Source: Gammaproteobacteria bacterium
Lineage (GTDB): Bacteria > Pseudomonadota > Gammaproteobacteria > Steroidobacterales > Foliamicaceae
Assembly: GCA_965115835.1 (NCBI GenBank)
Contig: OZ220471.1
Coordinates: 1,095,037 to 1,159,036, forward strand
Length of the DNA stretch: 64,000 nt
Direction of reading: 5' to 3'
Part shown: piece after piece, positions 5,511 through 23,838 of the stretch
How positions within the stretch are numbered: the stretch's first letter is position 1
Layout of the letters: each line of letters starts with the position of its first letter
The notes under the pieces: generated by a model
The model's database searches: none
What the model was told of the DNA's origin: nothing
What the model saw: only the letters and a program-made list of their open reading frames with translations
Made by a program: the position numbers and the translations under genes

Positions 5511-5741
5511 TCATCCGTAGAACGGGTGGGAGTCCAGAAGCTGCTGCGCCACCTGGCGGATGCGGCGACGGTCGCGCACACGCTTCGGCCCCCGCCAATC
5601 CTCCTGGAGGTGGACGACGTAGTAGTGCGTTCCCGGGTTGAGGAGGTCGTCCTCGCGGTAGGCATCGCCGACATGGTGACCGTCGGCGTTGTAGATTCGG
5701 GATTCGTGTGGGCTGACGCGCCTGAAAGTGATGGTGCTCAT
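5511..5741 (-). CDS. small conserved hypothetical protein (76 aa, copy A)
   Basis: MSTITFRRVSPHESRIYNADGHHVGDAY... is conserved with 27686-27913 (MSNITFKRVSPDESRIHDANGAYVGDVH...). GGAGAA lies upstream of the ATG at 5741. Confidence 0.55.
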   Translation of the reverse strand: MSTITFRRVSPHESRIYNADGHHVGDAYREDDLLNPGTHYYVVHLQEDWRGPKRVRDRRRIRQVAQQLLDSHPFYG

Positions 5742-5816
5742 CGGGTTCTCCGGTTGACTTGATGGAGGCGCGAGGGAACTCCCTCTCCTCTCTGCGCCGT
5801 TCACCCTCCACCCGCC

Positions 5817-6842
5817 TCACTCTCCTCCGGGACTCTGCAGGCGGTCAGGGTTCCCCGCCCCCGGGGCTGCTGTACCCCCCTCGAAGCGGAACAGGGGACC
5901 GAGCCGCGCGGCGAGCGTGTCGGGACCGAGTGCGACGAGGTCGTCGTTGAAGTCGCCGCCTTCGGGAACGACGACGGTGGCCTGGACACCCGCGTGCGCA
6001 CAGCGCCGCGCGAGCCGTTCGGCGGCACGGTCGCCCTCAGGGTCGTTATCGCGGGCGATGATGAGCCGCGCGACGCCGGGCGGAGGCGCGAACGCGCCGA
6101 GGCTTCCGGCGGAGAGCGCTGCGGCGGCGGTGATCCCGGGCACAGCGGTGACCAGCGACAGCACGGTCTCGATGCCTTCGCCGACCAGCAGCATGGCGTC
6201 GGGCGTTCCGAACCGCACGGCGCGCCCGTGGATGCGTCCGAGCGCCTTGCGCGGAGCAGCGACGCCCGCCTTGGCGGGCGAGCGGGGATCGAGCCAGGTG
6301 CGCTGCACACCGCTGACGGCGCCGTCGTCGCCGGTCACGGCGGCGACCAGCGCCGGAAGGCGGATGACCGATCCGTTCTCGCGGTAGCGTAGTGCAGGAT
6401 GAAAGCGCAGCGCCGCGAAGCGGCAGCGCGCGAGCCCCCGGGCATGCAGGTAGCGTTCGGCGTGGGTGCCGTCGATGTCGCGGCAGCGGCGCCACAGGCG
6501 CCGGGCCGCCGCGGTGGCGTCGTAGGCGCCGTGCTCGCCCGATGCCGGCGAAGCCGGCAGGGCGAGGAAGGCGCGGGCCTCGGCGAGCGCCGCGCGCAGC
6601 GTCGGCGCGCCCGAACGGTAGCGGACGAGGTCGAGCAGGTCGCCGTGCTCGCCGGTTGCGGCGTCGGTCCACTTGCCGGGGATGCCGGGACCTTCGAGAC
6701 GAACGTGGAGCGAGCGCCCTCGGGCGCCGTCGAGGTCGCCCGCGACCCAGTAGCGGCCCTGGCGGCGGCCGTAGGGCAGATAGCGGCGACACACAGCCTC
6801 GGCGCGCCGGGCGAGTTCGGCGGCGATGGCGGCGGCGTTCAC
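5817..6842 (-). CDS. Toprim-domain (primase-like) protein
   Basis: GTG start at 6842 preceded by GGGAGG. Toprim-like acidic motifs: LLVGEGIETVLS and IIARDNDPEGDRAAE. The N-terminus has the ...GDLDGARGRSLHVRL...GKWTDAATGEHGDLLDLV pattern seen in plasmid/ICE primase-like proteins. This gene is absent from the paralogous module B. Confidence 0.7.
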   Translation of the reverse strand: MNAAAIAAELARRAEAVCRRYLPYGRRQGRYWVAGDLDGARGRSLHVRLEGPGIPGKWTDAATGEHGDLLDLVRYRSGAPTLRAALAEARAFLALPASPASGEHGAYDATAAARRLWRRCRDIDGTHAERYLHARGLARCRFAALRFHPALRYRENGSVIRLPALVAAVTGDDGAVSGVQRTWLDPRSPAKAGVAAPRKALGRIHGRAVRFGTPDAMLLVGEGIETVLSLVTAVPGITAAAALSAGSLGAFAPPPGVARLIIARDNDPEGDRAAERLARRCAHAGVQATVVVPEGGDFNDDLVALGPDTLAARLGPLFRFEGGTAAPGAGNPDRLQSPGGE

Positions 6843-7066
6843 AGCGCCGACCTCCCGGTGTGACGTGGCGGCATGATGAAGACTCCTCTCGTTGCGGGGA
6901 ACGCCCCGATACCGGCCCGACCTCCGACTCCCGGCGGCGTAAGCGGGCGAACGCCCTGCGCGGAGCGCAGGCGCGAGGCCCGACCCGTTCGGGACTCGAA
7001 GCGGGCAGCAAAAAGGGGGACCGACGCCGAAACGCCGGTCCCCGGGGGAAGGACGGACAGTTCGCC

Positions 7067-7483
7067 TCAGAACGGGATCTCGTCGTCCGTCCCGTCGCCG
7101 TCGGCCGGCTGGGCCGGGGCGGCAGCCGAGGGCTGGGCGTCGGGCATCGCCGCGCCGTTGCCGTTCGGCTTGTCGAGGAACTGGACCCGGCAGCCCGGCG
7201 CCAGCAGGATCTCGGTCGAGAACCGGTCGGAGTCCTCGCCGTCCTTGCGCCAGCGTCGCGTCTGCAGCTTGCCGTCGACATACACCAGACGTCCCTTTCG
7301 GGCGTACTTGCCGAGCATCTCGACCAGCCCGTCCTGGAAGGTGACGATGCGGTGCCACTCGGTGCGGTCCACCCGCTCGCCGGTCTGCTTGTTGATATAG
7401 GACTCGTCGGTCGCAAGCGACAGATTGGCGACACGCCCCCCGCTTGTGAGGTGGTTGACGGCCCTCCCGTTATTTATGCGCAC
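7067..7483 (-). pseudogene. ssb: single-stranded DNA-binding protein, 3' portion only (5' end replaced at an insertion junction)
   Basis: ...SGGRVANLSLATDESYINKQTGERVDRTEWHRIVTF...GKLQTRRW... ending DDEIPF is a classic SSB OB fold plus acidic tail. Homology to the intact paralogue (28095-28544) stops at 7461. The ORF then runs into AT-rich DNA, with only a GTG at 7483 and no RBS. Confidence 0.75.
7454..7461. repeat. left copy of the 8-bp direct repeat GTTGACGG at the ssb break (candidate att core or TSD)
   Basis: The same 8-mer ends the 5' ssb fragment at 40131-40138. The intact paralogue has GTTGACTG at this position, so the two broken ends share a variant-specific overlap. Confidence 0.6.
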
Positions 7484-9592: not shown

Positions 9593-10290
9593 ATGTATCT
9601 ATGCGATTTACAGCATTCCCATGGCCCGCAAGGGTGTGAGCGCCATGCAGTTGAGCAAGGAGCTTGGTTGCCAAGACCGCACCGCATGGCATATGCTCCG
9701 CCGTGTGCGCGAGGCTTGCGTCGAAGGAACGTTCACGCTTGATAGGGTCGTCAAAGCAGACGAAACCCATGTCGGCGGGCGGGAGCGCAACAAATACAAC
9801 GACAAGAAACTCAGGGCTGGTCGGGGAACTGTGAGTAAAACTATGGTGATGGAAGCGAGAGAATACGGCAGCAATGTGGTGATCAAGCCTGTCGAGGCCA
9901 CTGATGTGGCAACCCTTATCCCATTTGTCGAGTTGAGCGTGGACGAGGGCGCGACCGTCTACACGGAAGAATTGAGTGCGTATACGAAACTCGCCTATCT
10001 GATCAACCAATACAAGCGTGAAACCGCAACCCATAGTTCCGGGGAGTATGCGCGGTAACGCACACCCCAACTCCATGGGGAGTGTCTGGGTGGTTCTCGA
10101 GCGCTCCATTCACGGCGCATGGCACCATGTGTTGCCCAAGCATCTTGAGCACTACGTCATCGAGGTTACGTTCAGGCTCAATGAGAGCAACTGCGAGGTT
10201 GACACCATCGGCTGCATTGGGGGCAAGCGGCTGTCCTCCGCCGGTCTCATTGCCGACAGTGGCAAGTCCACTCGGGTGCTTCCCGCATGA
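9593..10290 (+). pseudogene. IS1595-family (ISXO2-like) transposase, 5'-truncated and frameshifted
   Basis: ...GVSAMQLSKELGCQDRTAWHMLRRVREA...KADETHVGGRERNK...GRGTVSKTMVM... is followed, in another frame, by ...HPNSMGSVWVVLERSIHGAWHHVLPKHLEHYVIEVTFRLNE. The frame change is near 10040. The remnant ends in an ATGA overlap with the methyltransferase start. Confidence 0.65.
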
Positions 10291-11189
10291 GCCTCAAGGC
10301 CGTTGACCTGTTCAGTGGCTGCGGTGGACTTAGTGCCGGGCTGATTGATGCGGGCATTGACGTGGTTGGTGCCTACGACAATTGGGAGCCAGCCCTTGCC
10401 ACCTATCGCCGAAATATCGACAGCCATGCCGACGCGCTGGACATTGCGGATGTGTTCAAGGCCGCTCGCGCCATCCTGTCGCGGGAGCCTGACTTAATAG
10501 CCGGCGGCCCGCCCTGTCAGGACTTCTCGACGGCTGGCAAGCGCATTGAGGCGGGACGCGCCAACCTGACGCTTGCCTTCGGGCTTGTCATTGAGGCTTG
10601 CGGCGCTCCCTATTTCCTCATGGAGAACGTTCCCCAAGTGCGGCTCAGCGAAACCTACAGCCGAATGCGGGACAGTCTGATTGCAGCTGGTTACCAGATT
10701 GCAGAAACTGTGCTGGACGCTAGTCGTTGCGGTGTTCCGCAGGTGCGAAAGCGGTTCTTCGCCTTTGGCACCAAGGCGGGTGCATCGGTATCCTTACAGT
10801 TCCTTGAGTCGATCAACAGCCGGTTGGCCGATGAGCAACTGACCGTGAAGGCGTACTTTGGGGATGAGATTGACGTGGAACACTACTACCGCCATCCCCG
10901 CAACTACTCCCGCCGTTCGGTGTTTTCCGTGCATGAGCCGTCGCCTACCGTGCGCGGCGTGAACCGCCCGGTGCCAAAGGGCTACAAGGGCAACCATTTG
11001 GATTCGGCGGATCCGCAAACCGTGCGCCCGTTAACCACCGTTGAGCGCAGCCGCGTACAGACTTTCCCCAAGGAATGGGACTGGAACTGCGGCGACCGGA
11101 ACGCAGACGCTGAAACACAGATCGGCAACGCGGTTCCGGTCGCGTTAGCTTCCTTCATCGGGCGCGGCATAGTCGATGCCGTCCAGTAG
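10287..11189 (+). CDS. DNA (cytosine-5)-methyltransferase
   Basis: Motif I DLFSGCGGLSAG, motif IV GGPPCQDFSTAGKR, motif VI FLMENVP, motif VIII GVPQVRKRFF, motif X QIGNAVPV. Confidence 0.9.
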   Translation: MSLKAVDLFSGCGGLSAGLIDAGIDVVGAYDNWEPALATYRRNIDSHADALDIADVFKAARAILSREPDLIAGGPPCQDFSTAGKRIEAGRANLTLAFGLVIEACGAPYFLMENVPQVRLSETYSRMRDSLIAAGYQIAETVLDASRCGVPQVRKRFFAFGTKAGASVSLQFLESINSRLADEQLTVKAYFGDEIDVEHYYRHPRNYSRRSVFSVHEPSPTVRGVNRPVPKGYKGNHLDSADPQTVRPLTTVERSRVQTFPKEWDWNCGDRNADAETQIGNAVPVALASFIGRGIVDAVQ

Positions 11190-12243
11190 CCCCGGCCCGT
11201 CGCTGTACGGAATCTCAGCGGAAAACTCCAGCCGAAGCGGTTCCGGGCTTTGGGGTAAGAATCAGTTCAATTCCACTTTTCCGCTATCGCTTTGCCTGTA
11301 CATGAGAGACACAGGAATCCGCCCGGTAGCGGTGGTGTATGACGGTGCCAAAGTGACAACCAGCGACAGGCGATGGAGCATGGAAAAGGTCATAGGCCAA
11401 TCGCCCTATAACCCCTACTACCACTTTGAGAGCGAGTTTGAGCCTTATCGCGCCCTCTCGCGCAACATCACTGACCACATAGACATCGTGGTTGAGATTG
11501 GCGGGTGTCACGCAAGAGCGCTGGAAGTGAAGCTGACTGTGGTGCCTGACAAGGGAACCGCCGAACTGCCGGAATCCGAATGGGCACCGGAAATGGTGAT
11601 GCGCCCAGTAAGCTCGGCTCACGCCATGATGGGCGTGGCAATGGCGCTGAAACAAGCTGGAGGCAACAAGCGTGAGAAGGCCGTTCAGCTTCTGCGCACG
11701 GCGTACAACGGCATATCGTCATGGGACAACACGCCCGAAGTTCTAAGCCACGCACAAGCGCTGTCACAGGCTCTGACGGGCGTTCTTGGCTTAGCCCGCG
11801 CCATTGAGTCGCCGTTTCTGTTGCAGCCCATATGGCGCACGAAAGGGCAATCCCTGAGCCTCAAGAAGCAGTGCTTTGATGTGTTCGTGTGGTCCGATGT
11901 CGCTGTCATGGCCATTCCCCTGATTGAGCATGGCAAAAATCCCGATGCTCCGATGAGCCGATGGCTGCGCGAGATCACCCGCCATGTGCGCAGTCTGTAC
12001 GACATACTGACTACCGGCGACTACGATTACGCGGGAATCTACAAGGGGATGCCTCACGGCGGGCAAACGGACAAGTCTTTTGCGTTGCCGGGACGGAAAG
12101 CCCTGAGCTATCTGGCCCACGGGCGCCTTCAAAGTCCGGCACTCGGCAAGTCGATTCTGTCGCACTTGGTGGGAAAGGCCGGAGCCAATGAGTTGAAACC
12201 TGAACGGCGGTTTGATGCCGCCGTGAAGGCTCACATGCTATGA
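11176..12243 (+). CDS. probable type II restriction endonuclease partner of the C5-methyltransferase
   Basis: Overlaps the methyltransferase stop by 14 nt. It has a PD-(D/E)xK-like arrangement, ...ITDHIDIVVEIGGCHARALEVKLTVVPD (D...E-V-K). No other family assignment is possible by eye. Confidence 0.55.
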   Translation: MPSSSPGPSLYGISAENSSRSGSGLWGKNQFNSTFPLSLCLYMRDTGIRPVAVVYDGAKVTTSDRRWSMEKVIGQSPYNPYYHFESEFEPYRALSRNITDHIDIVVEIGGCHARALEVKLTVVPDKGTAELPESEWAPEMVMRPVSSAHAMMGVAMALKQAGGNKREKAVQLLRTAYNGISSWDNTPEVLSHAQALSQALTGVLGLARAIESPFLLQPIWRTKGQSLSLKKQCFDVFVWSDVAVMAIPLIEHGKNPDAPMSRWLREITRHVRSLYDILTTGDYDYAGIYKGMPHGGQTDKSFALPGRKALSYLAHGRLQSPALGKSILSHLVGKAGANELKPERRFDAAVKAHML

Positions 12244-12377: not shown

Positions 12378-13939
12378 CTAGGAGCCTGTGCGCCGTAAGA
12401 TGACGTGAGGCTTGGCGAATCGTCCGGAACCTCAACAACTGCGTCTTTGCGCGGGTGCCGTTGGCCTGCGGGCCGTGGAATGACTGTCTGGCGGCTCAAG
12501 AAAGCCCGAATCGCCCCCCGATCCGCCCCAAGGCCGGGCGGAATCCCGGTCATGCGGCTGCCAAACACCCACGCATCCTCTTGATGTTCAACGCCAGGCA
12601 CACCAAGTCCCACTCGCCGCGTACCTTGTGAAGGCCGCGCACACTGAACCGTCGAAATCCCAGCGCCTGTTTGATCCACCCGATCGGCGCCTCCGAAAGC
12701 CACTTGCGCTCGGCGTATTGTGCACGACCCGCCTCCGTCGACAGCTTCGCCGCCATGCGCGCTTTCGCCGGATACTTGTGCGCGTCCACCGCCGCCTTGC
12801 GACGACCCTCCCGACCCAACGCCACATAGCCGTCTACTCCGAGCGCCTCCAGCTTCCCAAGGTCGGATTCGTTGCAATACCCCGCGTCCGCCAGCACCGT
12901 CGCCGGACGCTTCCCATAGATCGCCTTCAATTCATCCAGCGGCTTCACCAACTGCCCCTGGTCGCTGGCGTTCGACGACACCTGCGCCGAAACGATCATC
13001 CGGTTCGCTCCATCCACCGCCAACTGCGCGTTGTAGCACTGCTGATACCCTTGCGCAGAAGTCTTCATGATCCGACTCTCCGGATCCGTGAAATTGTCCT
13101 GCGCCTTCTCCTCGAGTTCCCCATACCCCCGCTTGTAGCACCACCCACCCTTCGGATTGCGCTGTTCACCGGGCCGCCGACCGCGCGCATCGTCCGCCTC
13201 ACGCGCACGCGCCTCAATACGAGCCTTCGCCGCACGAATCGCCGTCAACCGATCTTCCCGACGACGCAACTCCTTCGGCAACTCGTCGCCCCGATACTCT
13301 TCCCCAAAGCGCTCGTCCTCCGACTCATCCACCGTTCGCGCACGATCCAGCAACAAACCAATCTCCGACTCCAAACGACGCTCTTCCTCCCGCATCCGAC
13401 CGTAACTCATCGCCTTGCGCTTGGATGCGTTCGGACGAACCTTGGTTCCGTCTATCGACAGCTTGCCAAAGTTCGCCACGCCCAACTCGCACGCCAGACG
13501 AACCATCTCCACAAACAGCCTCTTGAAGTCCGACAAATGACGACGACGAAACTCGCAGATCGTCCGGTGGTTCGGAAAGTTCCCCGCCGCCAATACCCGA
13601 AACGCCACATCTTCCTCCAGCTTGCGCGCCAAACCGCGCGAGGAAAACACACCCGTCGCATACCCGTAGATCAGCACCTTCAGCATCATCCGCGGTTCAT
13701 ACGGCGACTTGCGACGACCGTCGCCTTCATACGGCGCGTAAAACACACCCAAGTCCAGATCGTCCACCAAGTCGCTGACATGGTGCGCCAAGTGACCCTC
13801 CGGCAGCCAATCCTTCATATCCGGCGGAAGCAACAAACCCTGATTCGGGCAATACGGGCGAAACGTCGTCGGCATCTCAAAACCTCCACTTCCCTATATG
13901 GGAATTATCGCATTGCGTTCCTACGGCGCAGGCTCCTAG
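12378..13939 (-). mobile_element. IS1182-family insertion sequence
   Basis: Terminal inverted repeats: CTAGGAGCCTGTGCGCCGTAAGA (12378-) versus the reverse complement of the right end, CTAGGAGCCTGCGCCGTAGGAA (ending 13939). They enclose a single 441-aa transposase. Confidence 0.75.
12550..13875 (-). CDS. IS1182-family transposase
   Basis: N-terminus LLPPDMKDWLPEGHLAHHVSDLVDDLDL...YEPRMMLKVLIYGYATGVFSSRGLARKLEEDVAFRVL (DUF772-like). The DDE region reads ...VLADAGYCNE.... Confidence 0.85.
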   Translation of the reverse strand: MPTTFRPYCPNQGLLLPPDMKDWLPEGHLAHHVSDLVDDLDLGVFYAPYEGDGRRKSPYEPRMMLKVLIYGYATGVFSSRGLARKLEEDVAFRVLAAGNFPNHRTICEFRRRHLSDFKRLFVEMVRLACELGVANFGKLSIDGTKVRPNASKRKAMSYGRMREEERRLESEIGLLLDRARTVDESEDERFGEEYRGDELPKELRRREDRLTAIRAAKARIEARAREADDARGRRPGEQRNPKGGWCYKRGYGELEEKAQDNFTDPESRIMKTSAQGYQQCYNAQLAVDGANRMIVSAQVSSNASDQGQLVKPLDELKAIYGKRPATVLADAGYCNESDLGKLEALGVDGYVALGREGRRKAAVDAHKYPAKARMAAKLSTEAGRAQYAERKWLSEAPIGWIKQALGFRRFSVRGLHKVRGEWDLVCLALNIKRMRGCLAAA

Positions 13940-14150
13940 CGCTGGGTTACGAGGACCGCAATGACCATGACGAGTTGCGCCACGACCCGTTGATGGCGTT
14001 GCTGTGGGCCGCCCGTACTGGACGGGTGCGCGCTGGTCACATCGTCGCAACTGTGACCGTGCGCTGGCCGGTTCAAGCATCTTGAACCGCTTGGGGTTGG
14101 GCACACAGGGACGAACACCTCCCGATTGTCGAAAAGTTTCGGGGTGCATC
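13940..14150 (+). pseudogene. internal fragment of an IS1380-family transposase gene
   Basis: The nucleotide sequence and translation (ALGYEDRNDHDELRHDPLMALL...SSILNRLGLG) parallel 31115-31300 of the intact IS1380 copy. It is cut on the left by the IS1182 end. Confidence 0.6.
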
Positions 14151-14441
14151 CTATATGTCTGGCTGTCCAGATTCAGATAGTATGATGTTCTGACCTCGCA
14201 AACTTATGCACGGAAGGCTTTATTCCGCAGTATCAGTGATCTTCTGGACATCTTCAATCCCCGCCTCACCGTGCGTCAATTCTATGAAATTGGCCAAATC
14301 AATGCATCCTTACTTCGGTTGGCTTGTGCTGCAGATGATCGAGACTGGCATCCACGACCTCAGTGACCCACTTGACGAGAAAGAAGTGAAGCCTTGGTCA
14401 ACCGGTAGCCATAGGTGCCGCTACATCGTAAAGGCAACTAC

Positions 14442-14708
14442 ATGAGTGCGGAAAGCAAGAAGCCGATCACGGAAAACGATGACAGCACTCTGGCGAGCAG
14501 GGAGAATGTCAGAGAGTCCGCCGCGTTGCAGGCCAACTTCGAGCAACTGATCGCGCATCTGCCCAAGGACAGCCTCGCTGCAAAACTCGTGACCGCCTAC
14601 GCGACACCAAGCGAAACTACGCCCGCCGATGCTGTCGCGAAGGTCGCCGCAACCCGTCTTGATGAACTGAAGCAAAGCCATGACGACACCGAAGATCAAA
14701 AAGATTGA
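14442..14708 (+). CDS. small acidic hypothetical protein (88 aa) overlapping the ATPase start
   Basis: MSAESKKPITENDDSTLASRENVRESAALQANFEQLIAHL...HDDTEDQKD. It overlaps the downstream ATPase gene by 29 nt and has a weak RBS. Coding status is not proven. Confidence 0.4.
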   Translation: MSAESKKPITENDDSTLASRENVRESAALQANFEQLIAHLPKDSLAAKLVTAYATPSETTPADAVAKVAATRLDELKQSHDDTEDQKD

Positions 14709-17205
14709 GGTTCAGGGCTTCCGTGCGTTTGGCCGAAAGGGACAGACGCTCTTGTTCGACTCGGTACTTGCCGCCATCTGGGCATCCAACAGCCAAGGCA
14801 AGACTAGTCTTGCCGAAGCGTTCGAGTTTTTGCTAACCGGACAGATTGTTCGACGCCAGCTTGTAGCTAGTACCCAAGACGAATTTGCTGACGCCCTGCG
14901 CAATGCCCATATGCCGGCCCACATGCCCGCCTATGTCGAGGCAGAGATCACCGACACAGACGGCAAGCTACACAGGATCAGGCGGACACTTATCTCGGAC
15001 TATGCCAAGCGGAAAGACTGCCAGTCAGCGCTGCAAATTGATGGCAGAGACGTGAAGGAAAGCAATTTCGCTGCCCTCGGCATTGAGTTCTCACAACCGC
15101 CGCTCGCCGCGCCGGTGCTGGCGCAACATACGCTCGGCTATCTCTTTTCGGCCCGCCCAACGGATCGCTCCGCATATTTCAAGAAACTCCTTGAGGTCAC
15201 GAACCTAGAAGAGTTGCGTGGCGCGGTGGCTGTACTCGACACCAAGTTCAAAGCCAATGAGAACGACCAGTGGTGGGTACAGCTTAAGGCTGCCGCAGCG
15301 ATCAAAGACGCGGCGCCATTCCTGACGCCCCTCAAGACAGCTGTTCCGACACGTGCCAATATTGCCACCGCTCTTGATGAGGCGATCACAGCTATCTTGT
15401 CCACGAACGGACAGCCATTGTCGGCGATGCCCGACGAGCGCTTGGCAGCGCTTGACGAACTGCTCCTCAAGTATCGTGCCCGGGCTTTCCCTGTTGACGG
15501 ATTTGCTAGGAAAAGGCTAATAAATTGGGAGGAACCCGCCCAAGGAGAATGGGACAAGCTCAATGCCTACTTAGCGGTGCGCGAAACGGTCGAGGAGGAA
15601 ACGCGCCGACTGACTGTGCTCTTCAAGGAGGCCTTGGCTATCCCCACCGTCGATACGGCGACGCAACCCATCGATTGCCTGCTGTGCGGCAAAGAAGGCA
15701 GCCTGACACCCGAGCGCATTGCGCTTATCCGCACACGGACGCAAGAGACCGAGGCCTTTCAGGCCGCCAATACAGCTGCGATGGACGCTCTGCACGGCTT
15801 GGCCGCGTCCGCCCACGCTCTTGGTACTGCCACTGCCGCCTGCCCCCACTTTCTCACTATGAATTCAAGGGAGCGTCGGCTCAAGGGGTTCCGAGTAGAG
15901 CGTATTCGGGTGTTGCTGGGAGCGGATGCGCCTGCTGTCGTTGATCCTTGGCTACAGGCTCTCCGCAACCTTGCCCGCGCGCGAGTGGACATTGCTGCCA
16001 CCGCCAGAGCTCTCAGGGCCGAAGTCAACGGCTATATGGAGAAACCAGAGACCCTGCCTCATTTGCAACCCTTAAGGAGCCGCTTCAATGACGCTACCAC
16101 CGCTTATAACAGTTTCTCGAAGCTTCTGAGGCTCTACATTGATGCTCAAAAAGCTCTCCTGGAACGGATCGCGGCCGTCATTGATCCTGCTAGTGACGCT
16201 GGCGGCTGGCAGGCACTCATCAATCTTGCCAAAGACCAAGATTTGCTTCGAGCAAGCCTGATTGAGCGCCAAGCCCGGGTGACTCTGCAAAGGGAACTGA
16301 AGGAAGCGATACGCCAAATCGACAGGGGTAACGAGAAGGTTCTCGACAACAAATTCGCGGATCTGAGCAACGATATTCAGCACTGGTGGGAGTTGCTCCG
16401 CCCGGACGAGGCAACCTTCTTTTCGGCCGTTAGACCCCGTGAAGGTGCGCGGCGTACCGTGGACATCAAGGCCGGCCTATCGCTTGACGCCGGCCGAATC
16501 GCCCCGAAGTTGCGAAATGTCATCGCTGTGTTCAGCCAGTCCCAGCTTCACTGTCTGGGCCTCGCGCTCTTCATCGCCCGCGCTCTGCGCGAGGGGGCCG
16601 GTTTCGTGGTGCTTGATGATCCGATCTTGGCAAGCGATGAGGATTATCGGGCTTATTTCAAGACAGCCTTCCTTGAGAAGTTGATCGATGCCAATGTCCA
16701 GATAATTGTCCTTACCCAAGACCAGAAGATGTGGAAGGACTTAGAGCAACGATATGCCTACAAGAACATTGACATGTTCCAGTTGGCTTTAATAAACCGG
16801 TCGGCTGGCACAAAGGTCACCAATAAAGGCGACAACCTCATAGCCATGCTTTCTCGTGCCAAAGTGCTCGTACAGGGCGGCCTCCCCGAGGAATGCAAGC
16901 AGGCGGGTGAACTTCTGCGTAATGCCGCAGAGCGGTTCTGCAAGGAGATGCTGGTCAGGGACCGGTGGGCCAAGGGATACCGTGAAGCCGCCCTAAGTGA
17001 TTATGACGGCAATAACCTCGGGCAACTAGAACCCAAGGTGAGGCGGTTGCTCACGGCTGATCCGTCGCACTCAGGCAAGCTGCGCTCAATGGGTAGCCAA
17101 CTCAACCCTGCCAAGCACGACGACGACACGCCCGATCAAGGCACCATCAATGTCGTCCTCGGCGATCTAAAATGTCTTACAAAGAAGTATCTTCCTTACG
17201 CATAA
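14680..17205 (+). CDS. SMC/RecN/ABC-like AAA ATPase (841 aa) with long central coiled coil and an uncharacterised C-terminal domain
   Basis: The N-terminus IKKIEVQGFRAFG...WASNSQGKTSLAEAFEFLLTG is an SMC-head Walker A. About 350 aa of helical heptad-like sequence follows. The C-terminal head reads FSQSQLHCLGLALFIARAL...GFVVLDDPILASDEDYR (signature-like motif plus Walker B). About 190 aa of unassigned tail remains. GC is lower than in the flanks. Confidence 0.85.
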   Translation: MTTPKIKKIEVQGFRAFGRKGQTLLFDSVLAAIWASNSQGKTSLAEAFEFLLTGQIVRRQLVASTQDEFADALRNAHMPAHMPAYVEAEITDTDGKLHRIRRTLISDYAKRKDCQSALQIDGRDVKESNFAALGIEFSQPPLAAPVLAQHTLGYLFSARPTDRSAYFKKLLEVTNLEELRGAVAVLDTKFKANENDQWWVQLKAAAAIKDAAPFLTPLKTAVPTRANIATALDEAITAILSTNGQPLSAMPDERLAALDELLLKYRARAFPVDGFARKRLINWEEPAQGEWDKLNAYLAVRETVEEETRRLTVLFKEALAIPTVDTATQPIDCLLCGKEGSLTPERIALIRTRTQETEAFQAANTAAMDALHGLAASAHALGTATAACPHFLTMNSRERRLKGFRVERIRVLLGADAPAVVDPWLQALRNLARARVDIAATARALRAEVNGYMEKPETLPHLQPLRSRFNDATTAYNSFSKLLRLYIDAQKALLERIAAVIDPASDAGGWQALINLAKDQDLLRASLIERQARVTLQRELKEAIRQIDRGNEKVLDNKFADLSNDIQHWWELLRPDEATFFSAVRPREGARRTVDIKAGLSLDAGRIAPKLRNVIAVFSQSQLHCLGLALFIARALREGAGFVVLDDPILASDEDYRAYFKTAFLEKLIDANVQIIVLTQDQKMWKDLEQRYAYKNIDMFQLALINRSAGTKVTNKGDNLIAMLSRAKVLVQGGLPEECKQAGELLRNAAERFCKEMLVRDRWAKGYREAALSDYDGNNLGQLEPKVRRLLTADPSHSGKLRSMGSQLNPAKHDDDTPDQGTINVVLGDLKCLTKKYLPYA

Positions 17206-17289
17206 AGGCTCTCGGTCAATTTTCTACTTGCAATACGGGTCAGCCATGTGCGCAATCGGTCCCCTCGGGAAAGCTCAGCCTTCCTCCTG

Positions 17290-17715
17290 CGGATCGGCAG
17301 CACCGCTACGGTCTCACAGTCACTTTGGAGGTGCGCCGGGCGCGGGAGAATATTCTGGCGATGGCTTGGGACGGGGCGAGGCTGTGGGCCTCCGGGTTGG
17401 TCGGTGCGTTGCTGTGCCTGACGCTGATCTGGGTGCGGAGGGACGGGCACCGAACCCGGCGCTTCGCCCATGAGCGCGCGTTTGCACAGGAGCGACTGCC
17501 CTTAGTCGAGGGAAAGACTGGCGTTCGCGCCACCATCGCCTGAACGGATTTGCATCGGCGGCTTCTTCGCCCGGGCCTGCTGTTCTGCGTCCTGAGAAAC
17601 CGGATACCAAAGGCGCGGGGATGCAACGAAACCGCCAGCAGCAAGAACGGCGACTCGGCGCCTGCCCGCCACCCGTGAGTCAGGCGCGACTACGGGCGCT
17701 GGCTCTGATGGTCGC
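17290..17715 (+). pseudogene. relic of a second copy of the 2-TM gene 3' half plus the first 5 relaxase codons
   Basis: 17290-17715 aligns with 19028-19474 (for example GGTCTCACAGTCACTTTGGAGG...GACTACGGGCGCTGGCTCTGATGGTCGCCTCGA). Homology ends abruptly after ATGGTCGCCTCGA at 17715, where low-GC DNA begins. Confidence 0.6.
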
Positions 17716-17899
17716 CTCGACCGGCAAAATTGCTTATTCAGCTCAGTGACCGAACCGAGGTGTAGCAGGGTCAGGGTGTTGTCTGGACAGGGCGACATGG
17801 CTCTTGAAAAGCTCAGGCCTGAACACCACATCGTGTTACTACGGCAGGAAATACTTCAGCGTAGTAGCACCAAGCAAACTCGAAAAGGAGGTGATAGCG

Positions 17900-18040
17900 A
17901 TGGCGCGAAAGAAGAATCTTGAAGTAACGGGCAAGAAAGCAGCGTCCGCTGCATCCAAAGTACTTCGCAACCCGAGAGCTAGCAAGGCTGCCAAATCAGC
18001 AGCGGGCTCTGCGCTCACCCAACGGCCAAACAAGAAGTAG
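17900..18040 (+). CDS. small basic protein (46 aa), Lys/Ala-rich
   Basis: Strong RBS AAGGAGGTGA 7 nt upstream of the ATG. Sequence MARKKNLEVTGKKAASAASKVLRNPRASKAAKSAAGSALTQRPNKK. A hairpin follows about 50 nt downstream. Confidence 0.5.
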   Translation: MARKKNLEVTGKKAASAASKVLRNPRASKAAKSAAGSALTQRPNKK

Positions 18041-18091
18041 GCTGGCCTTTCCACTATTGATTGAGCGGATTTTATATTCGCTTTTCTGTCT

Positions 18092-18121
18092 ATGTTCTTG
18101 GCGTGATTGCGCCAAGAACAT
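18092..18121 (+). terminator. perfect 12-bp stem hairpin, possible terminator
   Basis: ATGTTCTTGGCG-TGATTG-CGCCAAGAACAT, followed by AAGTGCTTATTT. The T-tract is weak. Confidence 0.4.
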
Positions 18122-18779
18122 AAGTGCTTATTTGGGCTCTGAAAGGATGGCCACCTTGATCGGTGTAGTGGCGAATCCGCCCTAAGGCGCAAGCTATCAC
18201 GAAAAGGAAGCTGCCGCGGAAAGTATCCGCCCAAGCACTGGCATGCCCATGTTTGGTCAGGCAATGGCAATAAATCGCCCGGTCTCGAAGACCCGGTCGT
18301 CCCCAACGACTCAAGGCGGCGCTGAAAAGTATAGTGCCGAATGGCTCGGGGAAGTGCCTTGGCCGCAGGGTGGCGAAGGCTGCCAAAGCCTTGGTGCAAA
18401 ATGACTTTCACGGTTCCAAAGTCCGTCTTCCTCACCAAGCTGGTCGAGGGTGATGAGCACATTGTCGAGGTCCACAGCCGGGTGGCAGGCACACCCTTCC
18501 GGCCCATCAATGCTGCAATGTTTGTCCGCAGGATCAGAGCAGACCAAAGCTTCAATCATAGCCCTGCTGATATCGGCGCATGTGTGTCGACAAATCATTG
18601 GTATTCCTAAACTAATGTGATCAGAAAGGACACGATTTCGCATCATTTTTCCGCTATGATGGCAACGGGAACATCCCGCAAAGACTCCCTGGAAACCGCC
18701 CCATGACCCGGCATTTTGACAGGATGCGGCGATATTCCGGCAACGACCGCAGCAAGGAGAGCTATCACTGGAAAACCGC

Positions 18780-19460
18780 GTGCATCACAGGCGCCGCAAC
18801 GGATGGAGGAGAGCCTTCGATCCCGGGTTGTGGCGGGCGGCTCGCGCCGTCGGGATGGTGGGCGCGGCGTCGATGGCGATCCTTGCCTGCGCGGTCGCAT
18901 TGGCGCGGGATACCACGGGGCATGACTGGTACGCGGCTGTCAGGATTACGACCGCCGACCTTTTGATCGCTGTCGGCTTCGACGAAGACGCGCCAGTCGA
19001 ATACCGCAGGGCGGACGGATCTGTCGAGACCGTCAGCCGCTTCGGTCTCACAGTCACTTTGGAGGCTCGCTGGGCGCGGGAGGATATTCTGGAGACGGCC
19101 TGGGACGGGGCGACGCTGGGGGCGTTGTCCGGGTTGGGCGGCGCGCTGCTTTGTCTGGCGCAGATCTGGGGGCGGAGGGACGAGCGCCGAACCGGGCGCC
19201 CCGCATACGAACAGGCGATTGCGCAGGAGCCCGAAGCGCAGGAGGGACTGTCCTTGTCGAGGGAAAGGCTGGCCTCCGCACCGCCATCGCCCGCACCGGG
19301 CTTTGCATCGGCGGCCCCCTCGCCCGAAGCCACCGTTCTGCGTCCCGGGAAACCGGATGCCGTGGGCGCGGGATGCAACGAAACCGCCAGCGGCAAGAAC
19401 GACGACTCGGTGCCTGCCCGTCATACAAAGCCAAAGCGCGACTACGGGCGCTGGCTCTGA
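18780..19460 (+). CDS. hypothetical two-transmembrane protein translationally coupled to the relaxase
   Basis: Two hydrophobic segments (AVGMVGAASMAILACAVALA and LGALSGLGGALLCLAQIW). The stop overlaps the relaxase ATG (TGATG). The C-terminal half is duplicated at 17290-17700. The start codon is uncertain. Confidence 0.5.
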   Translation: MHHRRRNGWRRAFDPGLWRAARAVGMVGAASMAILACAVALARDTTGHDWYAAVRITTADLLIAVGFDEDAPVEYRRADGSVETVSRFGLTVTLEARWAREDILETAWDGATLGALSGLGGALLCLAQIWGRRDERRTGRPAYEQAIAQEPEAQEGLSLSRERLASAPPSPAPGFASAAPSPEATVLRPGKPDAVGAGCNETASGKNDDSVPARHTKPKRDYGRWL

Positions 19461-22438
19461 TGGTCGCCTCGATCGGCGCAGTCGCAAGCCCGTCCCAGGG
19501 CGCCAGCTACTACGAGAGGGACGGCTACTACGCAAAGGACTCGCCCGAGCACCGGGAAGCGAGCATGTGGATGGGCCAGGGCGCGGAAGCGCTTGGCCTC
19601 GAAGGGACAGTCGATCCCGAGAGCTTCAAGACAGTGCTGGAGGGTGAAGTGCCGGACGGCTCCGGGAAACGCTTGGGCCGAAGGCTCGGCGAGGGCGAGA
19701 TCCGCTATCGTCCGGGCCGCGACCTGACTTTCTCGGCCCCGAAGTCCGTTTCTCTTGCCGCACTCGTCGGCGGCGACGAACGCATCGTCAAGGCCCACAG
19801 TCGGGCGGTCGAACACGCACTGGACTGGTTCGAGAAAAACGCTGCCGAGACCCGGGTGCAGGACGGGGCAACCGGACGCATGGGCCGGGCCGGAGACCAG
19901 AAGACGGTGATCGCCACCTTCCGCCACGAGACCTCCCGCAACCTCGACCCAGCGCTGCACACCCATTCGGTGATCGCCAACATGCTGCTCGGTCCCGACG
20001 GCAAGTGGCGGACGATGGCGAACGAGAGCCTGTATGCGTCGAAGATGCTGCTGGGCGCCATGTACAGGAGCGAACTTGCCGGGGAACTTGCGAAACTCGG
20101 CTATGGCATCGAGAAGACCCATGCGGACGGGCGGTTCGAGATCGCGGGCGTGCCGCGCGAGATCGTCGAGGCGTTCTCGACGCGCCGCGCCGAGATTGAG
20201 GCGGCGATGGAAGACCGGGGGCTGGGCAGCACGGCGGAGAACCCGCATTTGGCCCGTCGCGCGGCGCTGATGACGCGGGCGGCCAAGCGCGATATCGACC
20301 GGGAGGCGCTGGGCGAGACCTGGACGAAGCAGGCCGACAACCTCGGCTTCGACGCACGAGGGCTGGTGGCGGAAGCAAGGGAACACAGCCCCGGCGTGGA
20401 CGGTAAGGAACACAACGGCATCGACACCAGCACGAACGGGCCATCCGCGGCAGCGCTTCAGGCCGACCTGTTCGAGCAGGCAGCACTGGCCGGTCCGGCG
20501 CGAGAGGCGGTAGCCTGGGCGCTCGCGCATCTCTCGGAGCGCGACGCGGTGTTCGCGAAGAACGATTTGCTTGCCGCTGCCCTCGCCTACAGTCCGGGCG
20601 CCGCGTCCATCGGCGAGATTGAGCGGGTCGTTGACGGCCTCAAACGTGAAAGCCGCTTGTACGAGGCCCCGGCGCTCAAGGGTGGCGGCGGACTCACCAC
20701 CGACAGGGCGGTAGCCCAGGAGCGCGAGACGATCGCGCTGATGCAAGACGGCGCAGGCCGGGGCAAGGCCCCGATGCGCGGCTGGGTTGTTGATCGCCAC
20801 CTGCGCAAGGGGCCGCTCACAACCGGGCAGAGAGAAGCAGTGAAGCTCATCCTCTCGGAGAAAGACCGCACCGTCGGCGTACAGGGCTACGCCGGCACCG
20901 GCAAGACGCGGATGCTGAACCGCGCCCGTACGCTCGCTCAGAAAAAAGGTTGGCGCATGGTTGGGCTGGCGCCGTCGGCTTCGGCGGCGCAGACGCTGGC
21001 GGCGGAATCGGGCATCAAGAGCGAGACCTTGCAACGGTTCCTGGCAAGAAACGCAGGCGTCGCCGAGGGCCGACTCACGAAGAAGGGCGCGAGAGCGCTG
21101 CGTGCGGCTTTTGCGAAAACGGCCCTGGTGGTCGACGAAGGCTCTCTCGCTTCTACGGTCCAGGCCCGCGACCTGCTCCGGATCGCGCGCGAACTGCGCA
21201 TCCCGAAGCTGGTGCTGGTGGGGGATTCCAGGCAATTGGACGCCGTCGATGCCGGCAAGCCCTTTGCGCAGTTGCAGCAGGCGGGCATGAAAACCGCCGT
21301 CATGGACGAGATCATGCGCCAGCGCGATCCCGACCTGAAGGCCGCCGTCGAGGCCAGTCTTGCGGGTGAAATCGGCAAGGCGTTCGACAAGCTCGGCTCC
21401 AACGTGGCGGAAGTGAAGCCCGACAACATCGCGGGCGCGGTGGCCGCGCGCTGGCTGAAGCTATCTTCCGAGGAACGCGAGCGCACCGGGGTGATGGCCC
21501 CGAGTCATGAATTGCGCGAGGGGATCAACGCCCATATCCGGGAACGCCTCGCCCGCGAGGGTCGCATTACCGGTCCGGCCCTGCAAACCCAGCGACTGGT
21601 CTCGAAGGGTTACACCCGAGCGGAGAAAGCGCTGGCCGCCAACTACGCGCCCGGCGATGTGGTCGCCTTTCACCGTCCCTACAAGCGTCTCGGAGTCGAG
21701 AAGGGCGACGAGCGTCGTGTCGAGCGTGTCGATCACGAAAACCGGACCGTACATCTCAACGCCCCGAACGGTTCGACCGTTGCCTGGAAGCCGTCACAGA
21801 TCGGCGGACGGCAGGGCGGGAGCGAGGTCTTCCGGTCCGAGACCATCGAACTTCGCGCCGGCGATCGTATCCGCTGGACCCGCAACGACAAGGGACTCGG
21901 ACTGGTCAACAGCGGCACGGCCGAGGTGGTGGGCGTACGCAAAGGGCGGGTGACGTTCCTGTTGGAGGAAGGGCGCAAGCTCACGCTGACCCCGGGCGAC
22001 CCGCAACTGCGGCATCTCGACCGCGCCTGGGCCTCGACCGTGCATGCTTTCCAGGGGCGCACGGTCGATAACGTGATTGCCGCGATGGAGGCGAACCATC
22101 CTCGGTTGACCACCGCCAAGGCGTTCTATGTCGAGATCAGCCGCGCCCGCGACCGGGCGGAACTGGTCACCGATGATGCGCAGGCGCTCAGGGAACGGCT
22201 CGAAGCGGTGACCGGCGAGCGCATCTCCGCGCTTGAAGGGATCGGCGAAAGCACGCAGCCGGAGCACGAATACGACCATGGAAAAGACGGGAAAGACAAG
22301 TCCGGCGTCGAACAACCGATCCCGGAGGCATCCGCGCCGCCCCCGCCGGAGAGAAAAATCGAGCCGTCAATACCCCGTGACAGGGTGCCCGAGCCGCCTG
22401 CCCGCGAGAAGCACATTGAGATGGACATGGGGCTTTGA
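19460..22438 (+). CDS. MobF-family conjugative relaxase/helicase (TrwC/TraI-like)
   Basis: Relaxase domain: GASYYERDGYYAKD (catalytic Tyr region) and the His triad FRHETSRNLDPALHTHSVIAN. RecD-like helicase: GVQGYAGTGKTRML (Walker A), LVVDEGSL (Walker B), VLVGDSRQLDAVDAGKPF, TVHAFQGRTVD. Confidence 0.9.
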   Translation: MVASIGAVASPSQGASYYERDGYYAKDSPEHREASMWMGQGAEALGLEGTVDPESFKTVLEGEVPDGSGKRLGRRLGEGEIRYRPGRDLTFSAPKSVSLAALVGGDERIVKAHSRAVEHALDWFEKNAAETRVQDGATGRMGRAGDQKTVIATFRHETSRNLDPALHTHSVIANMLLGPDGKWRTMANESLYASKMLLGAMYRSELAGELAKLGYGIEKTHADGRFEIAGVPREIVEAFSTRRAEIEAAMEDRGLGSTAENPHLARRAALMTRAAKRDIDREALGETWTKQADNLGFDARGLVAEAREHSPGVDGKEHNGIDTSTNGPSAAALQADLFEQAALAGPAREAVAWALAHLSERDAVFAKNDLLAAALAYSPGAASIGEIERVVDGLKRESRLYEAPALKGGGGLTTDRAVAQERETIALMQDGAGRGKAPMRGWVVDRHLRKGPLTTGQREAVKLILSEKDRTVGVQGYAGTGKTRMLNRARTLAQKKGWRMVGLAPSASAAQTLAAESGIKSETLQRFLARNAGVAEGRLTKKGARALRAAFAKTALVVDEGSLASTVQARDLLRIARELRIPKLVLVGDSRQLDAVDAGKPFAQLQQAGMKTAVMDEIMRQRDPDLKAAVEASLAGEIGKAFDKLGSNVAEVKPDNIAGAVAARWLKLSSEERERTGVMAPSHELREGINAHIRERLAREGRITGPALQTQRLVSKGYTRAEKALAANYAPGDVVAFHRPYKRLGVEKGDERRVERVDHENRTVHLNAPNGSTVAWKPSQIGGRQGGSEVFRSETIELRAGDRIRWTRNDKGLGLVNSGTAEVVGVRKGRVTFLLEEGRKLTLTPGDPQLRHLDRAWASTVHAFQGRTVDNVIAAMEANHPRLTTAKAFYVEISRARDRAELVTDDAQALRERLEAVTGERISALEGIGESTQPEHEYDHGKDGKDKSGVEQPIPEASAPPPPERKIEPSIPRDRVPEPPAREKHIEMDMGL

Positions 22439-22650
22439 GCAAGGGTCCTATGCGATCCCGAACGGCTACCGGCATATGCTTTTGCTTGGCACGACCGGTA
22501 CCGGAAAACAACTCTCGTGCGTCAGCTCATCGGCACCGCCCCGGCGAAGGAACGGTTTCCTTACGACCTCGACTTCGAAGACTGACCTGCCCCAGCGTCG
22601 CTTTCCTATTCACTTCATGTTGCCTGCTGATAGCATCCCTGCCATGGGAC

Positions 22651-23838
22651 ATGCAAGCGAGCGCCATCATGTTGATTACCGAAAAAGAAATACGGCCCCG
22701 CTTTCTGAAGCATCTTTCCTGGGCAACCGAAATTGATATTGCCACCGCCTGGACCACAAGCAACAAGGCATTGTGCGCTTTGCAGCAACGGGCGCCGGCC
22801 CCTGAGGTCCGCGCCATCGTGGGCCTCTGGGGCAACCTGACCGATCCCTTTGCCCTGAGAATGCTCGCCAACATTGGCCAACTTCGCGGCGCCGACTCGA
22901 CTCGGCGTTTTCACCCGAAAGTGTTTCTGTTCCGCGATGGCGAAAGGCAGGTAGCCTGGGTCGGAAGCGCAAATTTCACATCTGGCGGCTTTGGCATGAA
23001 TGAAGAGGCCATGTTCGAAACTCATGACACTCAATCTGTACAGAGCTGGTTCGATCACCTTTGGGAATACTGCAATCCATTGGACGGCGATGCCATCGAT
23101 GTCTATGCCGAGTCCCGTGACAAGTCGAGAAAGAATAGTCCGCCACCGCTTCGCCCCGCCAAGCCGCCAAATCTATCTCCCATGCAACTACTCGAAAAAA
23201 CAAATGACTGGCCAAGCTACGTCGCGGCATTGGAGCAGTGCGACGTTTGGTGGAGCAGTCGTCATTCGTGGTCCGTCTTGGGCGACCATAGCAGCTGGCG
23301 AGAAACCGTCGAGGTGCTGCACGACATGATCCGCCAGCAGGACTGGAACAAGCTCGACAAGTACGACCGTAATCGTTTGCTCGGATCGACTCGCGACGAG
23401 GGTTGGGCCTTGCTCGGTCGCATGTGGCACACCGCCCGGAATACAGTGTTCGGAGACAGAAGGGAAGAAATTCAGAACATCGTGCACACCGTCCTTGACG
23501 CTGAAGATGCCGCCTTCCCTCAGTTGGCATTTGAATCCTATGCCGCCCTCTGGGAAATTTATGGCGTAGGCTCTGGAATTGCGACGAGACTGCTTACCCT
23601 TGCCCGGCCTGATCGATTTGTTTCGCTGAACAAGGCATCAAGAGCAGGCTTGGCAAAGTTCTCCCGTCTGAAGCCCACCACCCTTGACAAACCAAGCAAC
23701 TACGCCCTTCTTCTCACCGCCATCTACGATCAGGATTGGTATACGGCGCCAATTCCGGGAAACATGCGCGAACGCGCTATCTTCCAGATGCGAGTCGCGT
23801 TGTTGGACTCATTCGTCTACGACCACAAAAAAGGATGA
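22651..23838 (+). CDS. single-HKD phospholipase-D-family (Nuc-like) nuclease domain protein with a C-terminal HhH-like domain
   Basis: HKD motif FHPKVFLFRDGERQVAWVGSANFTSGG. The C-terminal part has a helix-hairpin-helix-like IYGVGSGIATRLLTLARPDRFVSLN. The start is uncertain (ATG at 22651 or 22669; the track ORF start at 22435 overlaps the relaxase stop). Confidence 0.75.
   Translation: MQASAIMLITEKEIRPRFLKHLSWATEIDIATAWTTSNKALCALQQRAPAPEVRAIVGLWGNLTDPFALRMLANIGQLRGADSTRRFHPKVFLFRDGERQVAWVGSANFTSGGFGMNEEAMFETHDTQSVQSWFDHLWEYCNPLDGDAIDVYAESRDKSRKNSPPPLRPAKPPNLSPMQLLEKTNDWPSYVAALEQCDVWWSSRHSWSVLGDHSSWRETVEVLHDMIRQQDWNKLDKYDRNRLLGSTRDEGWALLGRMWHTARNTVFGDRREEIQNIVHTVLDAEDAAFPQLAFESYAALWEIYGVGSGIATRLLTLARPDRFVSLNKASRAGLAKFSRLKPTTLDKPSNYALLLTAIYDQDWYTAPIPGNMRERAIFQMRVALLDSFVYDHKKG

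Follow-up and report, generated by a model that had tools for sequence, protein, structure and literature searches.

The window analysed here, a stretch of 64,000 nucleotides (nt) of contig OZ220471.1 from a bacterium of the Gammaproteobacteria (assembly GCA_965115835.1), carries a compact module of two overlapping genes, which encode a small protein of 88 amino acids (aa) and an SMC/ABC-type ATPase of 841 aa. Both genes, and the 29-nt overlap of the 3' end of the small open reading frame (ORF) with the start of the ATPase gene, were noted in a preliminary description of the sequence and are borne out by the ORFs and by Pfam. In that description the pair was regarded as a candidate defence module with neither a nuclease nor a partner in evidence. 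A candidate for the former is now apparent, as the ATPase ends in a domain with a HEPN-like fold and an RloC-type R-x3-E...H set of residues, and the partner is the small ORF itself, present in 44 of 45 loci. The features of the module, all on the plus strand, are the following.

14250-14441: conserved 5' leader of the module, the presumed promoter and ribosome-binding site region; homology with close relatives begins at its left end
14442-14708: small partner gene, 88 aa from the ATG at 14442 (97 aa from a GTG at 14415)
14680-17205: ATPase gene, intact ORF of 841 codons
14680-15198: N-terminal head lobe of the ATPase (residues 1-173), with Walker A, the Q-loop residue Q149 and the conserved loop 58-77
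15199-16398: coiled-coil insert (residues ~174-573, ~400 aa), long helices in the AlphaFold model
15676-15687: CxxC motif, predicted zinc hook (C333-L-L-C336), at the apex of the coiled coil
16399-16827: C-terminal head lobe (residues 574-716), with the signature (618-622), the Walker B/D-loop LDDPILxSD (645-653) and the H-loop position T679-Q680
16828-17205: HEPN-like domain (residues 717-841, ~125 aa), five helices, predicted ribonuclease (RNase) effector
16918-16944: R747-x3-E751-x3-K755 on one face of a long helix, the predicted catalytic Arg and Glu, fitting the HEPN motif Ex3[KR]
17104-17121: N809-P-A-K-H813-D814, a loop before the last helix, with H813 as the predicted catalytic His
17206-17300: short 3' tail of the module; its end is the right limit of homology with relatives

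Pfam assigns residues 6-692 of the large protein to SMC_N and residues 8-108 to AAA_23. Invariant columns were scored in an alignment of 51 homologs, and the Walker A motif ASNSQGKTS (35-43), the signature-like FSQSQ (618-622) and the Walker B motif VVLDDP (643-648, with D646, D647 and P648), all of them read correctly from the sequence at the outset, are invariant throughout. The AlphaFold model, built on a homolog alignment and with a mean predicted local distance difference test (pLDDT) score of 83, comprises a split ABC head, a helical insert and an all-helical C-terminal domain at about residues 720-837. The head is indeed split by a coiled coil, which measures about 400 aa in the model, the original estimate being ~350 aa. 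At its apex the helices end at residue 325 and restart at 344, and the CxxC motif lies in the non-helical segment between them; as C333 and C336 are invariant in the 51 homologs, this motif is a predicted zinc hook. Among solved structures, the whole model matches Rad50 (7zr1) and coiled-coil-bearing SMC heads best; the Lamassu complex 9hqu is also matched, and Wadjet JetABC (9qxx) is found at rank 42.

Two positions of the head deviate from the Rad50 pattern. In the alignment with Rad50, LTQD pairs with ITHD and LDDP with LDEP, and the His of the H-loop is replaced by Gln680 in at least 90% of the family members (T679-Q680-D681; 16714-16722). Together with the Glu-to-Asp change in Walker B, this replacement suggests slow ATP turnover, that is, a switch and not a motor. 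The loop at residues 58-77 (14851-14910) contains seven invariant residues, R58, R59, E68, F69, R74, N75 and H77, and residues 60-69 within it are modelled with a pLDDT below 50 despite this strong conservation; the loop may serve as a docking site for DNA or the small protein, and it might become ordered only upon binding.

The C-terminal domain was initially thought to be about 190 aa long and was left unassigned. Residues 650-716 belong to the ABC head (H-loop region), and the domain therefore comprises only about 125 aa (717-841). Ten of its residues, R747, E751, C754, K755, G799, K800, N809, H813, D814 and Y837, are invariant. A separate model of residues 700-841 (pLDDT 82, predicted template-modelling score 0.77) has the all-alpha, up-down helical bundle fold of the HEPN superfamily, and about 26 of its top 30 Foldseek matches in the PDB are HEPN proteins, among them HepT toxins, ST0689, TM0613, the sacsin HEPN domain and Csm6' (probability up to 0.99, template-modelling score ~0.5-0.6). 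Typical HEPN RNases contain an Rx4-6H motif plus an Ex3[KR] motif, and their active sites form at dimer interfaces (PMC3710099). The latter motif is present here as the invariant E751-x3-K755, and the position of H813, in a loop before the last helix, is that expected of HEPN proteins. The 14 extra residues that precede the catalytic His, as compared with RloC-type proteins, carry a family-specific DPSHxGKL motif, in which G799 and K800 are invariant. A profile search of the PDB with the sequence of this domain returned chance matches only. When 1.84 billion representative proteins were searched with a hidden Markov model of the domain, the top 150 matches consisted exclusively of the ~830-860 aa architecture and its fragments, and hence HMMER does not detect the domain in other architectures.

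The affiliation of this domain was clarified by single-chain relatives found in plasmids by tblastn. One of them, from the Staphylococcus epidermidis plasmid SAP105B (L060, 858 aa), passes the threshold of Pfam AAA_13 and is a member of the PADLOC family PDC-S06 (E 5e-259). An alignment of 45 homologs of this protein, denoted A6, served as the reference; its invariant positions include Walker A, C386-x2-C389, DDPxxS, T688-H689 of the H-loop and R774-x3-E778-x48-H827. These are the published signature of RloC, which is defined by the triad Arg-X3-Glu-X36-52-His, shared with PrrC, and by a CxxC zinc hook at the centre of a coiled coil like that of Rad50 (PMC2610378). Comparison of the family of the window protein with A6 by hhalign gave a probability of 98.5% (E 1.9e-15) over 249 columns that begin at the ABC signature and reach the C-terminus, with R747 paired with R774, E751 with E778 and H813-D814 with H827-D. 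The family is thus likely to be homologous, if distantly, to the RloC-type ABC-HEPN proteins, of which it forms a separate branch. The system that fits best, RloC/PrrC, was absent from the list of defence systems offered in the preliminary description.

The small ORF is an obligate and conserved partner of the ATPase. Across many phyla, an ORF of 47-90 aa lies immediately upstream of the ATPase gene in all but one of the 45 loci with an intact 5' end, which answers the question, raised at the outset, of whether the pair co-occurs across genomes, and the two ORFs usually overlap by 7-31 nt. The encoded proteins consist of a variable N-terminal tail, acidic in the present copy, and a conserved helical core of about 50 aa with the motif N-[FL]-[ED]-R-L-x-x-H-L-x-x-[DG]-S-L-A-x-x-L-V, in which the Asn (N32) never varies and four Leu residues (L36, L40, L45 and L49) are nearly invariant. 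The core is under purifying selection: among six close relatives its ratio of nonsynonymous to synonymous substitution rates is 0.22-0.44 in 14 of 15 pairs, while the N-terminal tail evolves nearly neutrally. A profile search yielded only 36 database homologs of the small protein, all of them of 54-93 aa, unannotated and without a Pfam match; in the one distant match followed up from the small-protein side, the adjacent gene was found to encode an overlapping 826-aa SMC_N ATPase, and the small ORF was met in no genomic setting other than this pairing. A profile search of the PDB with the small protein gave chance matches only. The ORF was originally described as acidic, which holds for this copy, with an isoelectric point of 4.7, and not for the family, in which the values range from 4.05 to 10.4 with a median of 5.6. 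As acidity is not conserved, a role of the small protein as a DNA mimic is not supported. Its origin as the split-off N-terminal extension of about 95 aa present in single-chain relatives likewise finds no support, the hhalign probability being below 1% against L059 (a further relative, described below), L060 and the A6 N-terminal profile.

The ATPase family, with 362 database matches, consists of uniform proteins of about 830-860 aa. It is found in the Alphaproteobacteria and, at 30-45% identity, in Gammaproteobacteria, Acidobacteriota, Planctomycetota, Bacteroidota, Nitrospinota, Halobacteriovorax and others. It is nevertheless rare, with 235 clusters at 50% identity among the 1.84 billion representatives, and sporadic. 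The ATPase of the window itself has no record in the contig index. A distant pair located on a Nitrosospira plasmid (L061) is 28% identical and has the same 29-nt overlap. No match was obtained when the cassette was compared with plasmids by megablast, and neither tblastn against phage genomes nor a pattern scan of viral contigs detected relatives, so the module is not phage-borne in those collections.

The two nearest genes on each side were examined in 30 loci (111 proteins). The commonest families among these neighbours are N6_Mtase (8), Eco57I (6), N6_N4_Mtase, ResIII and phage integrase (4 each), resolvase and rve (3 each), and ArdC and the BsuBI/PstI endonuclease (2 each). In four loci (L013, L014, L023 and L026) a type IIG enzyme, and in two others (L018 and L028) a type III Res subunit, is encoded on the same strand shortly before the small ORF; the ends of these genes lie at or within about 15 nt of its start in some cases and up to about 540 nt before it in others. 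Hachiman, SIR2, NERD, MmeI or a large methylase were found nearby in other loci. Linkage to restriction-modification (RM) is thus frequent but not obligatory, and the neighbour pattern is that of a 'restriction-linked ORF'. The initial view of a candidate defence module on a mobile element is upheld by this distribution of a sporadic ~3 kb unit among RM, Hachiman, SIR2, integrase and ArdC genes, and by the best match among defence models, which is LmuB of Lamassu.

The limits of the module in the window are set by comparison with its relatives. In blastn, homology to loci L015, L010, L011, L024 and L012 begins at about 14250-14270, farther left of which the sequences are unrelated; beyond the stop codon of the ATPase gene there is a single match of 71 nt (17227-17297), to L015 only. 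Homology with the closest relatives thus extends from about 14250 to at most ~100 nt past this stop codon, and the flanks differ between loci. Since it is confined to about 14250-17300 between unrelated flanks, the unit of ~3 kb moves independently. Promoter and terminator scans gave matches at or below the expectation from shuffled sequences; no sigma-70 consensus was found in the promoter scan, which is uninformative for such a host, and a search of 13800-18800 against Rfam (E<=1) gave a single sub-threshold chance match. As had been observed, the content of guanine and cytosine is lower than in the flanks: 0.564 in the cassette, compared with 0.631 in the whole window and 0.668 in the relaxase gene traA.

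Several features surround the module, the first two of which form a type II RM pair.

10287-11189, plus strand: C5 methylase of the RM pair (Pfam and PADLOC)
11176-12243, plus strand: HindVP-type endonuclease of the RM pair (Pfam and PADLOC)
12550-13875, minus strand: intact insertion sequence (IS) with a DDE_Tnp_1 transposase (Pfam)
13918-14082: transposase fragment of the IS1380 type, adjoining the module on its left (DDE_Tnp_1_4, E 4.6e-5, under the curated cut-off)
30875-32311: intact copy of the IS1380-type transposase, 17 kb from the fragment

The IS debris, the broken copy of a backbone gene and the nearby RM pair that the preliminary description placed around the cassette are all present. 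The debris is the IS1380-type fragment, which appears to have been cut by the second IS (transposase 12550-13875). The broken copy (17303-17725) repeats, in direct orientation and diverged form (78-98% identity), the segment 19037-19477, which is located just before, and extends into, the gene of a TrwC-type relaxase. Along this duplication of ~420 bp the identity is ~78% on the left side and increases to 98% on the right, which suggests recombination between two related conjugative elements where the cassette ends. The RM pair is identified by Pfam (DNA_methylase, E 1.8e-53; RE_HindVP, E 6.4e-72) and by PADLOC (MTase_II and REase_II); it is possibly a functional partner of the module, from which it is separated by an IS. 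As the window encodes a tyrosine integrase, a Toprim/DUF7146 protein and a TrwC relaxase, the surrounding element is an integrative and conjugative element (ICE). Adjoining the integrase gene, at 4189-7358 on the minus strand, are genes for a YAcAr/SLOG-domain protein and for the DUF7146-Toprim protein, which are typical ICE cargo or primase genes unrelated to the module. A gene with a PLD-like (NgoFVII-type) nuclease domain (22435-23838) begins at the stop codon of the relaxase gene.

It is also worth mentioning that the gene pair is accompanied by further genes in some relatives. In some Bradyrhizobium-like loci the ATPase gene is directly followed by a DUF3223 gene (10525-10833 in both L004 and L005). 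The DUF3223 gene recurs in L057 (8748-9467), where the ATPase gene looks split into several short ORFs; its product may be an optional third component. In the Halobacteriovorax-like loci L047 (1005-5803) and L058 (1-5969) the pair directly follows a gene for a UvrD-family helicase and, in L058, a ResIII protein is encoded farther upstream on the same strand, which hints at a larger operon in this lineage.

Taken together, the two genes are probably best understood as a self-contained, horizontally mobile and restriction-linked abortive-infection module, in which a Rad50-like switch is fused to a HEPN RNase, perhaps an anticodon nuclease; the broader view of the large protein as an ABC-HEPN defence protein is held with fair confidence. 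This reading draws directly on the architecture, the invariant residues, the HEPN-like fold, the distant RloC-type homology, the pairing of the genes and their RM and mobile context. An RNase activity, a DNA trigger and a role of the small subunit we infer by analogy with known systems, as we do the nature of the substrate, tRNA being a plausible target, though advanced with somewhat less than even confidence. Translation of the two genes would be coupled. The large protein, with heads of the Rad50/SbcC/LmuB type, would be expected to dimerise on ATP, and at rest the folded coiled coil with its zinc hook, together with the small subunit, would hold two HEPN domains apart or occluded. Binding of abnormal DNA, with DNA ends, intermediates of phage replication or DNA that escapes cleavage because the neighbouring restriction system is blocked as candidate triggers, would change the conformation of heads and coiled coil; the HEPN domains would then pair into an active RNase, and cleavage of tRNA anticodon loops or of other RNA would stop translation and abort the infection. 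The small protein, whose gene occupies the position of those of LmuC and of the SbcD C-terminal domain, may be a stoichiometric subunit that would most likely bind the head or the coiled coil as a silencer or specificity factor; the more definite assignments, to a silencer or to an adaptor, are both tentative. The scheme is patterned on the gating of RloC, in which a zinc hook and a DNA-dependent ATPase control the anticodon nuclease, on DNA-end sensing by Lamassu that releases or activates its effector, and on the location of HEPN active sites at dimer interfaces.

A number of observations weigh against this reading. As regards the nuclease, the Foldseek E-values of the HEPN matches are weak (0.2-1), the Arg of the HEPN motif Rx4-6H is absent, with N809-x3-H813 in its place and R802 not conserved, and Glu751 and His813 are 61 residues apart, outside the published RloC range of 36-52, the value in A6 being 48. 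When the C-terminal domains alone were aligned by hhalign, the result was marginal (E 0.0046, probability 7.6%), albeit in the same register end to end, and single-sequence comparisons of this domain with RloC-type domains were not significant. As regards the head, the window protein has no match to AAA_13 at E<=0.1; this family (PF13166), which contains PrrC and RloC, has a gathering threshold of 36 bits, and 25 of the 51 members match it below the cut-off (best 33.2 bits) and in the Walker B region only, while the distant two-gene member on the Nitrosospira plasmid passes it (42.2 bits). Moreover, Gln680 stands in place of the H-loop His and Asp647 in place of the Walker B Glu (D646-D647; 16615-16623), and ATP turnover may therefore differ from that of RloC, whose activation needs ATP hydrolysis. 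Finally, the small protein matches no LmuC model of PADLOC (E<=0.1), no antitoxin and no solved structure.

Among the alternatives, a compact Lamassu system survives best, though as an unlikely account. It would consist of the ATPase as LmuB, the small ORF as a miniature LmuC and an effector fused in cis, would sense DNA ends and act mainly against the replication of phage or plasmid DNA, and its effector, activated by oligomerisation, would not necessarily be a tRNase. LmuB is the best PADLOC match for all 51 members (E down to 1.4e-21), the window protein matching model PDLC03859 with E 2.4e-16 over residues 5-692 and model positions 4-596 of 611, so that the ATPase part is equally close to Lamassu LmuB, and the complex 9hqu is among the structural matches of the model. 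In the Lamassu structures a zinc hook is present in LmuB, and the small subunit LmuC contacts the LmuB coiled coil, the head and DNA; the gene lmuC immediately precedes lmuB, in the same way as the part of sbcD for the SbcC-binding C-terminal domain precedes sbcC. LmuB combines with many kinds of effector, and the system senses DNA ends. There is, however, neither LmuA nor a C-terminal domain of the LmuA type, the small ORF lacks an LmuC match, the C-terminal domain aligns with the anticodon nuclease domain of the RloC type, and LDDPILSSD resembles the DDPVSSLD of AAA_13 and not the LDEP of SMC and Rad50 proteins. This account overlaps the RloC-like reading and is not exclusive of it.

It is less likely still that the pair is a toxin-antitoxin or addiction module that stabilises the element, with the HEPN ATPase as the toxin and the small protein, rapidly turned over, as the antitoxin. 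Such an arrangement would agree with the overlapping gene order in which the antitoxin comes first, with the common neutralisation of HEPN toxins by a small cognate protein, as in RnlA/RnlB and HEPN-MNT (PMC3710099), with the presence of the module on ICEs and plasmids, and with the fast evolution of the small protein's N-terminal tail. A Rad50-like sensor of 840 aa with a conserved zinc hook, however, exceeds the needs of a toxin, the frequent operonic link with RM points to defence, and no DNA-binding antitoxin domain was found in the small protein by Pfam or by the PDB profile search.

A housekeeping or element-encoded ATPase of repair or segregation (SbcC, RecN, RecF or SMC-like) with a non-catalytic C-terminal domain, as the SMC_N match and the annotation of one distant member with the Gene Ontology term 'double-strand break repair' would allow, is highly improbable, as the family is sporadic and rare with variable flanks rich in RM and mobile-element genes, invariant polar residues lie within the HEPN-like fold, no gene for an SbcD/Mre11-type nuclease or a kleisin was present among the neighbours examined, and the scores against NCBIfam models fall far short of the cut-offs (RecF 23.9 versus 172, Rad50 14 versus 454, SMC 11 versus 729). 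An assignment to RecN or RecF, which had been named beforehand as the result that would speak against a defence role, was thus not obtained.

In the RloC-like reading, if correct, the module would add a two-component branch to the translation-disabling defences of the RloC/PrrC kind, described so far as single proteins, and would provide a case of a Lamassu-like sensor fused to its own RNase. A tractable two-gene system of 3 kb would then be available for the signalling of zinc-hook ATPases from DNA to a nuclease domain and for the role of a minimal accessory subunit. The family is rare and compact and would link two defence families. None of the PADLOC models tested calls the module, which has therefore likely been missed in defence censuses, especially in Alphaproteobacteria and in environmental phyla. 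One may speculate, with considerable reserve, that the family is an evolutionary and mechanistic bridge from Lamassu to RloC/PrrC, in which an LmuB-like sensor with a cis RNase and a minimal, LmuC/SbcD-C-terminal-domain-like, portable silencer or trigger receptor would guard RM systems of any type (II, IIG or III) against anti-restriction, while PrrC guards only type Ic.

As for the system classes that were first proposed as relatives, Lamassu is the only one that proved close. Gabija, Septu, PARIS and OLD/AbiL are not supported as close relatives, since their PADLOC models match only the Walker A end of the protein, and Wadjet (JetC), with no model among the 25 PADLOC families listed, is represented only by the low-ranked structural match. 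Like Lamassu (LmuA-LmuC-LmuB; DdmABC), an abortive-infection system, the module has an LmuB-like ATPase with a zinc-hook motif and a small gene immediately upstream. It differs in that no separate LmuA, an effector whose C-terminal domain LmuB and LmuC sequester in Lamassu, is encoded within 14250-17300, the predicted effector being RNase-like and fused to the C-terminus of the ATPase, and in that its small protein is far smaller than LmuC and matches no LmuC model. As LmuA is missing, the module is not Lamassu.

With PrrC of the EcoprrI type Ic RM locus the family shares an ABC ATPase followed by a C-terminal domain of the HEPN class, in PrrC an anticodon nuclease, with an R-x3-E...H set of residues, and a physical link to RM. 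PrrC is silenced externally by the RM system to which it is linked, and a block of restriction activates it. PrrC, however, is a protein of ~400 aa without coiled coil or zinc hook and is tied to type I RM. The module is linked to RM of types II, IIG and III, frequently but, in contrast to PrrC, not obligatorily. PrrC is always embedded in RM loci and RloC is rarely linked to them (PMC3458546), and in its context the module resembles PrrC more than RloC.

The nearest family for which a profile could be built is PDC-S06 (AAA_13, ~860 aa), a candidate system only, in which CxxC, Walker B and R-x3-E...H-D follow in the same order. Its models match the window protein weakly and over residues 613-714 only (E 1.8e-5), and its member on plasmid SAP105B, the one examined, has no upstream small ORF. 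Another single-chain relative, of 882 aa, is encoded on a plasmid of Rahnella sikkimica (L059, 2132-4780); it has a CPAC motif in mid-protein, an R-x3-E...H-like region at its C-terminus and an N-terminal extension of ~85 aa, lacks an upstream small ORF and, like the window family, scores better with LmuB than with PDC-S06. It may represent a further intermediate family.

The closest correspondence is with RloC. Both are proteins of about 800-860 aa in which a coiled coil bearing CxxC at its middle interrupts the ABC head, a DD-type Walker B is followed by P-[IV/L]-x-S-[SL]-D, and an all-helical domain of the HEPN class at the C-terminus contains Arg-x3-Glu...His; both are carried by mobile elements, sometimes beside ArdC. 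On the other hand, the family has a coupled small partner gene in nearly all loci, whereas for RloC only one gene, whose product contains its own silencer, has been described; the family is often, and RloC rarely, linked to RM; its triad has the wider Glu-His spacing with the DPSHxGKL insert; its H-loop has Gln for His and its signature is FSQSQ instead of LSEGEQ; and, compared with the RloC-type proteins of A6, it lacks the N-terminal extension of ~95 aa. The family is not RloC in the strict sense, because it is not a single gene, scores below the AAA_13 threshold and departs from the published spacing of the triad. It is best regarded as a previously undescribed branch of the RloC/PrrC-Lamassu type, whose chemistry and logic are likely those already known.

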